From assembly GCF_003334305.1 (NCBI RefSeq), contig NZ_QOWS01000002.1: a stretch of 64,000 bases of DNA. The stretch is one strand, 5' to 3'. Position 1 is the stretch's first letter. Each line of letters starts with the position of its first letter. The DNA comes from Escherichia coli. Its GTDB lineage: Bacteria > Pseudomonadota > Gammaproteobacteria > Enterobacterales > Enterobacteriaceae. Of this stretch, positions 3,001 through 6,000 are shown piece after piece. Made by a program: the position numbers.

Positions 3001-6000
3001 AAACCAGAAACGGCACTGTGCGATCTGCGGCAGCCATTGGCGATCCCATCCGATTTCGGTTCAGTTCATCATGAAGTCGAACTGGCGGTGTTGATTGGCG
3101 CGACGCTGCGTCAGGCAACGGAAGAGCATGTCCGCAAAGCCATTGCCGGTTACGGCGTGGCGCTTGATCTGACATTGCGTGATGTTCAGGGAAAAATGAA
3201 GAAAGCCGGGCAGCCGTGGGAAAAGGCTAAAGCGTTTGATAACTCTTGTCCGCTTTCCGGGTTTATCCCCGCGGCGGAATTTACCGGCGATCCACAAAAT
3301 ACAACGCTGGGCCTGAGCGTAAACGGCGAACAACGCCAGCAAGGTACGACTGCGGACATGATCCATAAAATCGTTCCGTTGATCGCTTATATGAGCAAGT
3401 TTTTTACCCTCAAGGCCGGTGACGTTGTGTTGACAGGCACGCCTGATGGCGTCGGCCCGTTGCAAAGCGGTGATGAGCTGACAGTCACTTTCGATGGGCA
3501 TTCTTTGACAACTCGCGTTTTGTAATACTTTTTGCCGCCTGAAAGCGGCGGCAAAACTTGCATCGCTGTGCCAGACTGGTTATAAGGTGCGTTTTAACGT
3601 AATGGCGGAACACCTGATGAGCGATGTACCTTTCTGGCAAAGTAAAACCCTGGACGAAATGAGCGATGCGGAATGGGAGTCGTTGTGTGATGGTTGCGGT
3701 CAGTGTTGCCTGCATAAACTGATGGATGAAGACACCGACGAAATCTACTTCACTAACGTCGCCTGTCGCCAGCTCAATATTAAAACTTGTCAATGTCGGA
3801 ACTACGAACGTCGTTTCGAGTTTGAACCCGACTGCATTAAATTAACCCGTGAAAATCTGCCAACATTCGAATGGCTGCCAATGACCTGCGCTTATCGTTT
3901 GCTGGCGGAAGGTAAAGATTTACCTGCGTGGCATCCGCTACTTACTGGTTCGAAAGCGGCAATGCATGGTGAACGTATCTCTGTGCGTCATATCGCAGTG
4001 AAAGAATCAGAAGTGATTGACTGGCAGGATCATATCTTAAATAAACCTGACTGGGCGCAGTGATAAATTTAATAGATGTTGATGGGGGCTTTCTTAATAT
4101 ACGTCTGGATGCTCGCCATTTCGTAGCCCTGTTTTTGAAAGCGCTCTGTCATAATGAGAGTTACCCGATACCTTATTATCAACAGGTAACTCTCAATCTT
4201 TAAAAAACGTCTGTGTTTTTAAATGTGATAAACCTTATACCTTGAGTACATGGAGAGAATAATCGCTTATCAGACTTCAGGTACCTCAAAGAGTGTCTTT
4301 TTACCGTGTCTTTTCTGATACTCATTACAGGTGTTAATCATTTTTTTTGCCGCTTCTTTTAGCAAAGAAAGCATTAAATCATCATAATCAACATAGAATC
4401 TGGTTGTTTCAGTTTCCGTTTTTATCTCCCCGATGGCGGCTATTTCGGTGGTTAATTTCAATTTGGCGGCATCGATATCTTTATTCGCTTGTTTAACCGT
4501 GTTAGACAGGGTGGTAAAGAAATTCTGCACAGATTTTAACTTGTTCTTCAATTCTGGAATCAGTTTCCCTTCAACTACGCCCGCAGCAATAGAATAGGAA
4601 ATGATTAATCCAAATGGACCGGCGACGACACCGGCTGCGGCACCGGCATACGCTTCCTTCCTGATTTTATCTACCTGTGACTGGAAAAGCTGCTTTTTTC
4701 TGAAAAATCATTGGTTAACTGGCTATCTAACGCCAGCAGTTTCCCGGAAGCGTTGTTGAAACTTTGTGAGCTTACCAGCAGGGATTTTTGCGCTTCATTC
4801 AGCTTCGTGATGCCGTCATCCAGTACCTTAATGAGAATGTCTTTCTGGGCGGATGCTTTCTTCTCATTGTACTCATCAAATAGAAAAATATACGCTGCGA
4901 GCAATTGCGTCGCAACACCACACCATTCATACACTGTTTGGGTTGCTTCAAAATACTTATCCTGGCTATCCATAAGTAAGGTTTTAATATCGCCGACTAA
5001 AACGGAGGCTGCCTGTGAATACTCCTGTTTAAAGCGACTTAACTCTTTTATGGTTTCATCAAAGGTCTGCCAGGGGATGACCTGATCGAGATATTTATTA
5101 TAAAGATCTAATGCTCCATCTGCAGTTTCGATTGCGTTTTTAACTACTTCTACCGTTTTATCTGCAACGATTTCAGTCATAATCATTCGCCTCTTTAAAT
5201 ATATAAATTGTAATGAAACTCCTGTTTTACAACTATTAATAAATTTTACTTCATCTAATTCATAGTTAGCCGGGCGGGATGCGTCAATGTCTTTATTTCT
5301 ATTAATATGATAAATATCAAACAATGTTTAATGTCATTATGGCGAATGCTTCTATTCTATTTTTTTGCCGGGTGATATTTTTCATTTCTGCTGGATGAGC
5401 GTCGTCGCCAGAAGGCCACGTGAGCACAGGATAAGAGAACGAAAAATCAGCAGTCTATGCAGCGACAAATATTGATAGCCTGAATCAGTATTGATCTGCT
5501 GGCAAGAACAGACTACTGTATATAAAAACAGTATAACTTCAGGCAGATTATTATGTTGTTTATCAAGCCTGCGGATCTCCGCGAAATTGTGACTTTTCCG
5601 CTATTTAGCGATCTTGTTCAGTGTGGCTTTCCTTCACCGGCAGCAGATTACGTTGAACAGCGCATCGATCTGAATCAACTGTTGATCCAGCATCCCAGCG
5701 CGACTTACTTCGTCAAAGCAAGTGGTGATTCTATGATTGATGGTGGAATTAGTGACGGTGATTTACTGATTGTCGATAGCGCTATTACCGCCAGCCATGG
5801 TGATATTGTCATCGCTGCTGTTGACGGCGAGTTTACGGTGAAAAAATTGCAACTACGCCCGACGGTACAGCTTATTCCCATGAACAGTGCGTACTCGCCC
5901 ATTACCATCAGTAGCGAAGATACGCTGGATGTCTTTGGTGTGGTGATCCACGTCGTTAAGGCGATGCGCTGATGTTTGCTCTCTGTGATGTAAACGCGTT

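Follow-up and report, generated by a model that had tools for sequence, protein, structure and literature searches.

The FNR-Type Dyads Upstream of a Frameshifted hlyE Gene and of narK in Escherichia coli Are Very Probably Independent Instances of One Motif

Introduction

When the control regions of a broken toxin gene and of a nitrate transporter gene carry nearly the same short dyad, do they share a regulatory design, or do both simply come close to one consensus? The question is raised by a 64,000-nucleotide stretch of Escherichia coli DNA (hereafter the window), which belongs to the chromosome, has the gene order ycgN-hlyE-umuDC ... narX-narK-narG, is near-identical to thousands of complete genomes and is collinear with K-12. 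An earlier note on this DNA had pointed to a dyad upstream of hlyE that nearly repeats a sequence upstream of narK, and had proposed that the two genes share one type of anaerobic activator site and that the broken hlyE still keeps an intact anaerobic control region.

The hlyE site has been characterized since the late 1990s, and narK is a textbook FNR/NarL promoter. The hlyE element has reportedly been the subject of several dedicated studies as a class I site for FNR and CRP. The class II activating position of FNR is -41.5, and its class I positions are reportedly -61.5, -71.5, -82.5, and -92.5. Tandem-FNR promoters combine a class II site at about -41.5 with an upstream FNR site, as in yfiD, where the two lie at -40.5 and -93.5, and in a synthetic series of such promoters; upstream sites at -85 or -95 are reportedly repressive.

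The published FNR/CRP site of hlyE extends from -69 to -54, with a -35 element TTGACG, a -10 element TATGAAT and the ATG at +73 (Lithgow, 2007, PMC2156107), and RegulonDB records the same 16-mer, centred at -61.5, among the activator sites of CRP (Shimada, 2011, Table S4, PMC3105977). In vivo, FNR occupied hlyE only in the absence of H-NS and StpA (Myers et al., 2013). For narK, the proximal FNR site is listed in Table S6 of the same study with a PatSer score of 17.06 and in its Table 1 at -41.5, and one FNR motif was counted in the narK ChIP peak (Myers et al., 2013).

Materials and Methods

The FNR matrix was rebuilt by fitting an additive model to 186 PatSer scores (Myers et al., 2013, Table S6), with an rms error of 0.003. 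The rebuilt matrix reproduced the p-values of that paper and placed five window sites above the cutoff, all of them Table S6 entries; since the five top window sites are all found in that table, the reconstruction was regarded as validated. Scores were read against the precision-recall cutoff of the same study, which is a score of at least 12.17 and a PatSer ln p of at most -10.75 (Myers et al., 2013). The CRP matrix was built from 125 CRP cores of RegulonDB, with hlyE left out (Shimada, 2011, Table S4); the list of cores includes several FNR-type sites, and the narK proximal site obtains a high score with this matrix as well.

Conservation was assessed on 80 narK-type loci, with one genome per species, and 45 narK upstream regions were examined. 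Within E. coli, genomes were searched for the 38-mer around the narK distal dyad, which 5,398 genomes match, and a 28-base word rule was used that places mismatches outside the dyad. The NarL-type heptamers upstream of narK were compared by eye with the NarL heptamer TACYYMT. The features of the two promoters are collected in Table 1.

Table 1. Coordinates of the hlyE and narK features in the window.
Feature	Position	Strand	Remarks
hlyE coding region, pseudogene	4270..5180	-	From the ORF list, the K-12 alignment and the sequence
hlyE ATG	5180	-	+73
hlyE transcript start	5252	-	Mapped from PMC2156107
hlyE core promoter	5252..5287	-	Elements of PMC2156107 Fig. 6 at the expected spacing
hlyE -10 heptamer TATGAAT	5264-5258	-	
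hlyE -35 element TTGACG	5287-5282	-	Followed by a GC-rich spacer
SlyA Ia recognition sequence TTATCATATTAA	5302..5313	-	-61 to -50; coordinates mapped from PMC2156107
hlyE FNR/CRP site	5306..5321	-	TTTGATATTTATCATA along hlyE transcription; centre 5313.5 = -61.5; FNR core 5307-5320
NarL-type heptamer pair TACTCAC-T-ATGGGTA	52086..52100	+	About -101 to -87; adjoins the distal dyad; NarL binding predicted
narK distal FNR-type dyad ATGATAAATATCAA	52101..52114	+	Centre 52107.5 = -79.5; 16-mer AATGATAAATATCAAT at 52100-52115
narK proximal FNR site TTGATTTACATCAA	52139..52152	+	Perfect consensus; centre 52145.5 = -41.5, class II
narK transcript start, predicted	52187	+	Proximal site set at -41.5 (Myers et al., 2013, Table 1)
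narK start codon	52212-52214	+	Corresponds to K-12 narK start 1277957

Results

A Shared 14-Base Core in Two Promoters

The reported match was reproduced at the positions claimed for it: ATGATAAATATCAAA at 5307-5321 (+), which lies within the interval 5305-5324 singled out earlier, and ATGATAAATATCAAT at 52101-52115 (+) agree at 14 of 15 positions. The hlyE and narK distal dyads have in common a 14-base core, ATGATAAATATCAA, of which there is no third copy in the window, where the next-best matches to it carry two mismatches. As a raw match, the identity of 14 in 15 was rejected as significant because hundreds of equal pairs are present: 15-mer pairs identical at 14 or more positions number 681 in direct and 236 in inverted orientation (917 in total), and mononucleotide shuffles of the window give about 90 of each (about 180). 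Both dyads share 9 of the 10 positions of the FNR consensus TTGAT-N4-ATCAA, which qualifies them as FNR-type sites, and this consensus with at most one mismatch occurs 8 times in the window vs. 2.9 times expected. The pair goes beyond chance only in its fit to the FNR consensus and in the promoter location of both copies. A further look-alike, GTGATATTTTTCAT at 5372-5385, was dropped with an FNR matrix score of only 5.1.

Identity between the copies ends exactly where the dyad does. The 20-base flanks on the two sides agree at 2 and 6 of their 20 positions, which is the level of chance. The flanks being unrelated and the identity being confined to the dyad, the copies are not duplicated DNA; neither a dispersed repeat nor a duplicated segment was recognized in the window, as judged by similarity past the motif and by copies with fewer than two mismatches. 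Because the identity is read on the plus strand and the genes lie on opposite strands, the dyads are inverted relative to transcription, with the imperfect half ATCAT being promoter-proximal in hlyE and promoter-distal in narK. This opposite orientation is probably of minor effect for a symmetric dimer.

The hlyE Promoter Is Intact and the Gene Is Frameshifted

The hlyE copy is the known class I FNR/CRP site. Compared with hlyE (clyA/sheA) of E. coli K-12, the 16-mer centred at -61.5, the -35 and -10 elements, the SlyA Ia sequence and the ATG at +73 are the same, and identity extends from -113 to +128, with the SlyA/H-NS region unchanged; upstream of this stretch, the only differences from K-12 are substitutions at -114, -177, and -202. 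SlyA Ia shares bases with the promoter-proximal half of the dyad and falls within the published H-NS I footprint (-75 to -37). Of the 4,258 E. coli records that contain the region, 4,213 have the 38 bases around the dyad unchanged, and the dyad is essentially invariant within the species. A literature search with the 14-mer returned the hlyE paper as its sole match. The suggestion that the hlyE control region is intact was borne out by the identity with K-12.

The gene downstream differs from that of K-12 by a frameshift, the site itself being the same in both. A 1-nt deletion at about 4687/4688 changes codon 165 from TAT to T-T, and the frameshifted product is 169 amino acids long and ends at the stop codon 4673-4671. 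In a genome that is 100% identical, the PGAP annotation of hlyE reads 'frameshifted', and together these observations confirm that hlyE is broken, as had been supposed; its function is presumably lost. Of 5,426 complete E. coli genomes, 811 share this frameshift allele. An intact promoter in front of this pseudogene says little on selection, because a within-species divergence of about 1% predicts an unaltered 15-base site whether it is used or not.

FNR and CRP Scores of the Two Dyads

Since the hlyE and narK distal dyads share one 14-mer, they score alike on the FNR matrix, at 11.90 (ln p -10.47), tied at rank 7-8 of 63,987 window positions. Both fall 0.27 short of the cutoff of 12.17, and neither is found in Table S6. 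The earlier note had named, as a test of its proposal, whether a position weight matrix places one of the two sites below the FNR/CRP binding threshold; the FNR matrix does not separate them, and they lie under the strict cutoff together. About three quarters of the wild-type FNR ChIP peaks (Table S5 count), including dmsA, nrfA, and pyrD, have a best motif weaker than 11.90, with a best ln p of -10.34 for dmsA and -10.3 for nrfA. The cutoff is a strict one, and a score below 12.17 is not proof against binding; the FNR matrix does not refute binding here, because the hlyE site is under the cutoff and yet experimentally functional.

Sequences of this quality are not rare. Shuffles yielded 1.7 sites scoring at least 11.9 per 64 kb, and 3,805 distinct 14-mers (up to reverse complement) reach the score of the dyads. 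Among the 186 FNR-type 14-mers of Table S6, 13 identical pairs were counted, e.g., the narK proximal site with nirB and narG with ydhY. By our estimate, about 230 sites of this kind per genome would be expected to give 7-20 identical pairs, and the 8 such sites of the window 0.007-0.02. The match is thus a mild coincidence locally and nothing unusual genome-wide, and the near-identity, which the earlier note had treated as informative, conveys nothing beyond likeness to the FNR consensus.

With CRP, the two sites part. The hlyE 16-mer TATGATAAATATCAAA agrees with TGTGA-N6-TCACA at 8 of 10 positions and scores 11.1-13.3 bits, about the level of lac, which makes it the second best position in the window. 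The narK distal 16-mer agrees at 6 of 10 positions and scores 7.2-7.7 bits, with 51-55 window positions equal or better. The outer bases are T...A in hlyE and A...T in the narK distal dyad, and the gap in CRP score arises because the single mismatch of the 15-mers, together with the base on the other side, makes up the outer T...A positions that are read by CRP. The CRP matrix separates hlyE, a good CRP site, from narK distal, a poor one.

The narK Promoter and the Conservation of Its Two FNR-Type Sites

The narK distal dyad lies 38 bp upstream of the proximal site, in a surrounding with an A+T content of 63.5% vs. 49.6% for the window. The hlyE site at -61.5 occupies a class I position, and the distal dyad, centred at -79.5, misses the closest of the class I positions given in the Introduction by about 3 bp. 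Both narK sites, at -41.5 and -79.5, are presumably annotated as FNR sites in RegulonDB/EcoCyc. The putative NarL heptamer pair next to the distal dyad forms a conserved block in an alignment of 25 narK upstream regions, and a RegulonDB NarL site, CACTGTA, is placed directly upstream of it (PMC2718512).

The narX/narK ChIP-seq peak spans both FNR-type sites, and their spacing of 38 bp is below what ChIP-seq separates. The position of its summit, 1277080, between the two narK sites was considered as evidence for occupancy of the distal one and was rejected, since in the same tables (Myers et al., 2013) summit and motif often lie 0-85 bp apart. The ChIP-chip data of Federowicz (2014) are too coarse for this purpose, with narK unmentioned in the text, and literature searches on a narK site at -79.5 gave nothing usable.

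The two sites differ in conservation. In nearly all of the examined Enterobacteriaceae narK loci, a proximal site scoring at least 16 is placed at a near-fixed distance from the ATG. Among the 45 narK loci, a distal dyad scoring at least 9 was found in E. coli and E. albertii only, and it was absent from Escherichia sp. MOD1-EC7003 and from 40 narK loci of other genera (41 in total). Escherichia sp. MOD1-EC7003 has AATAATAAATATTCAT at this position, with a best score of about 5, and Citrobacter, Enterobacter, Klebsiella/Raoultella, Kluyvera, and others carry only a left RTGAY beside the NarL-like block, followed by a T-run. Within E. coli, the core of the distal dyad is unchanged in at least 99.5% of 5,416 genomes and could differ in at most about 18, and the adjacent heptamer is polymorphic in about 19% of genomes, the common variant sampled being G to A at 52098. 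Judged from these alignments, the distal dyad is a young, Escherichia-specific feature outside the conserved narK control region, and it appears to have been built in place out of an ancestral RTGAY and T-run.

Discussion

In this study, we conclude that the hlyE and narK distal dyads are very probably two independent instances of the FNR motif, namely the known hlyE site and a weak auxiliary site of narK. Each dyad consists of one perfect and one imperfect half-site (ATCAT) around an A/T-rich spacer, and their likeness would arise because the motif leaves few free positions, and not from shared descent or a common regulatory design. The proposal that hlyE and narK share an FNR site type holds in so far as both dyads are of the FNR type and have A/T-rich spacers, with the hlyE site being experimentally defined, and it does not extend to their orientation, CRP fit and conservation, which differ. 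The resemblance is an ordinary one, and the hlyE site is already published, with nothing new about it here.

In the published model, FNR or CRP activates hlyE from -61.5, H-NS, covering -75 to -37 and further bases, keeps the gene silent, and SlyA acts by displacing H-NS (PMC2156107). According to this literature, an FNR or CRP dimer at the hlyE site activates the weak sigma-70 promoter in the class I manner, through contact with the C-terminal domain of the RNA polymerase alpha subunit, H-NS silences it by covering the site, and SlyA, whose own site overlaps the proximal half, displaces H-NS. The machinery is intact in this window, but with the frameshift its activation would be expected to give only the 169-residue fragment. 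At narK, anaerobic activation proceeds from the consensus class II site at -41.5, as shown in earlier work, and the element at -79.5 may serve as a lower-affinity auxiliary FNR-type site beside the NarL heptamers, predicted to modulate expression at most.

Compared with tandem-FNR promoters, narK is similar in that another FNR-type dyad lies upstream of its consensus site at -41.5. Unlike in those promoters, the upstream dyad is weak (11.90 vs. 17.06), is centred at -79.5 instead of -85, -95 or the -93.5 of yfiD, and is limited to Escherichia (E. coli, E. albertii). The hlyE/narK pair also resembles the pairs in Table S6 (narK proximal with nirB, TTGATTTACATCAA; narG with ydhY, TTGATCGTTATCAA), in which the same core was reached by convergence on the consensus (Myers et al., 2013). 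Those pairs are strong, above the cutoff and class II activator sites on both sides, whereas the hlyE/narK pair is near-threshold, lies at -61.5 and -79.5 and has opposite orientations.

The alternative to be taken most seriously, though we hold it to be unlikely, is that the narK distal dyad has no function and resembles the motif by accident, in an AT-rich stretch of promoter, which would leave the hlyE copy as the one genuine regulator site. The local A+T content and the 1.7 sites of equal score per shuffled 64 kb are consistent with it, as are the score below the published cutoff, the single motif counted in the narK ChIP peak, the lack of conservation past E. coli and E. albertii and the degraded AATAATAAATATTCAT of Escherichia sp. 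MOD1-EC7003. Against this, the dyad outscores the best motif of about three quarters of real FNR ChIP peaks, its core is near-fixed in the 5,416 E. coli genomes next to a heptamer that varies in about 19%, and the strong neighbouring FNR site would raise the local FNR concentration; the presumed database annotation of -79.5 as an FNR site points the same way. We put forward, as a doubtful and speculative possibility, that the distal dyad was gained in the ancestor of E. coli and E. albertii from an RTGAY half-site and was lost in one cryptic Escherichia clade, giving narK a second, low-affinity FNR input. If so, Escherichia narK would have an FNR input that other enterobacteria lack, e.g., for tuning at intermediate oxygen or for interplay with NarL and IHF, and the dyad, its core being identical, would equal in intrinsic FNR affinity the hlyE site, which FNR is known to occupy only once nucleoid proteins are removed.

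Three other explanations bear on the sites more broadly. We considered that the region of the narK dyad might be a Fur box accounting for the reported iron dependence of narK, since GGTAATGATAAATATCAAT at 52097-52115 agrees with the Fur consensus in 13 of its 19 bases, but 27 window positions match at 13 or more and 108 at 12, which is the level of chance, and we think such a box very improbable. That a promoter activated by FNR depends on iron is accounted for by the iron-sulfur cluster which FNR carries. That both dyads are dual FNR/CRP sites, with narK receiving cAMP-CRP catabolite input as well, is improbable, though less so than the Fur box: activation by CRP through the hlyE site is documented, the two dyads share their inner 14 bases and RegulonDB has FNR-type sites also as CRP sites, such as nirB, yfiD, and focA, but the outer bases differ, the fit of narK distal (6 of 10) is well below that of hlyE (8 of 10), with the corresponding gap in bits, and narK is missing from the CRP target lists of Shimada (2011, PMC3105977). 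The descent of both copies from one sequence, by duplication or through a mobile or repeated element, is suggested only by the identity of 14 in 15 and by their location within one 47-kb stretch, and we regard it as scarcely credible, given the unrelated flanks, the absence of further copies in the window, the 7-20 identical pairs expected per genome anyway with 13 observed among 186 sites, and a narK copy that appears to have formed in place.

For the widespread hlyE pseudogene allele, the promoter would be intact simply from too little time for decay. A common FNR core does not make the two sites interchangeable, as CRP use is set by the outer bases, and position and orientation differ. Furthermore, the hlyE site is an example of a known functional site that is left out by a strict matrix cutoff.

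Variation at the hlyE Locus

The frameshift in hlyE was found to be due to a single base missing from codon 165, with the deletion at about 4687/4688. When the 38-mer spanning it (window 4667-4704) was compared with 5,426 complete genomes of E. coli, 811 contained an exact match; therefore, the frameshift is a widespread pseudogene allele that extends beyond a single strain. Compared with K-12, the hlyE-umuD intergenic region differs only at window positions 5366, 5429, and 5454, corresponding to -114, -177, and -202 of hlyE, while the variation in other E. coli lineages falls instead in the GC-rich -35/-10 spacer (5270-5277). 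The promoter segment itself (window 5262-5366) is wholly absent from approximately 1,160-1,170 of the 5,426 E. coli genomes. In locus L087 (NZ_AP045179.1), the single example fetched, an IS1 transposase lies between ycgN and umuD, at the place expected for hlyE.

Conserved Elements Upstream of narK

In the alignment of narK upstream regions, a block further upstream than the distal dyad (Table) was kept in nearly all aligned Enterobacteriaceae and was more conserved than anything near the dyad. In E. coli this block scores 10.4 bits with the CRP matrix, and its second half showed no conservation as a CRP half-site in the alignment. The block may be part of an IHF region; an IHF ChIP-chip signal has been flagged at narX/narK (Myers et al., 2013).

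The NarL-type heptamer pair beside the distal dyad was also kept across genera in the same alignment. Within E. coli, the 38-mer around the pair has one mismatch in approximately 19% of genomes, and the variant sampled was a G to A change at 52098, within the second heptamer. The palindrome between the two FNR sites was E. coli-specific in the alignment. Palindrome arms as short as these commonly arise by chance.

Table. Sequence features near narK and FNR-type sites scoring above the published cutoff of the FNR matrix.
Feature	Sequence	Window	Location	FNR matrix score
Conserved block	CGTGAAAAA(T/C)C(T/A)CA	52052-52066	centre ~-127 of narK	
NarL-type heptamer pair	TACTCAC-T-ATGGGTA	52086-52100	directly adjoining narK distal dyad	
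Perfect 6-2-6 palindrome	AGATAA-AG-TTATCT	52119-52132	between two narK FNR sites, centre -61.5	
FNR-type site	TCGATCTGAATCAA	5665-5678	inside umuD	12.67
FNR-type site	TTGCTTCTGATCAA	27902-27915	dhaR/ycgV side	12.9
FNR-type site	TTGATAAGCATCAA	61627-61640	inside purU	14.2

Other FNR-Type Sites in the Window

All three FNR-type sites in the Table have entries in Table S6 of Myers et al. (2013), where those in purU and on the dhaR/ycgV side are predicted sites without a ChIP peak, and the third is listed as "within umuD," in an H-NS-bound region and likewise without a ChIP peak. With the FNR matrix, this umuD site outscores the real hlyE site, which lies 350 bp from it.
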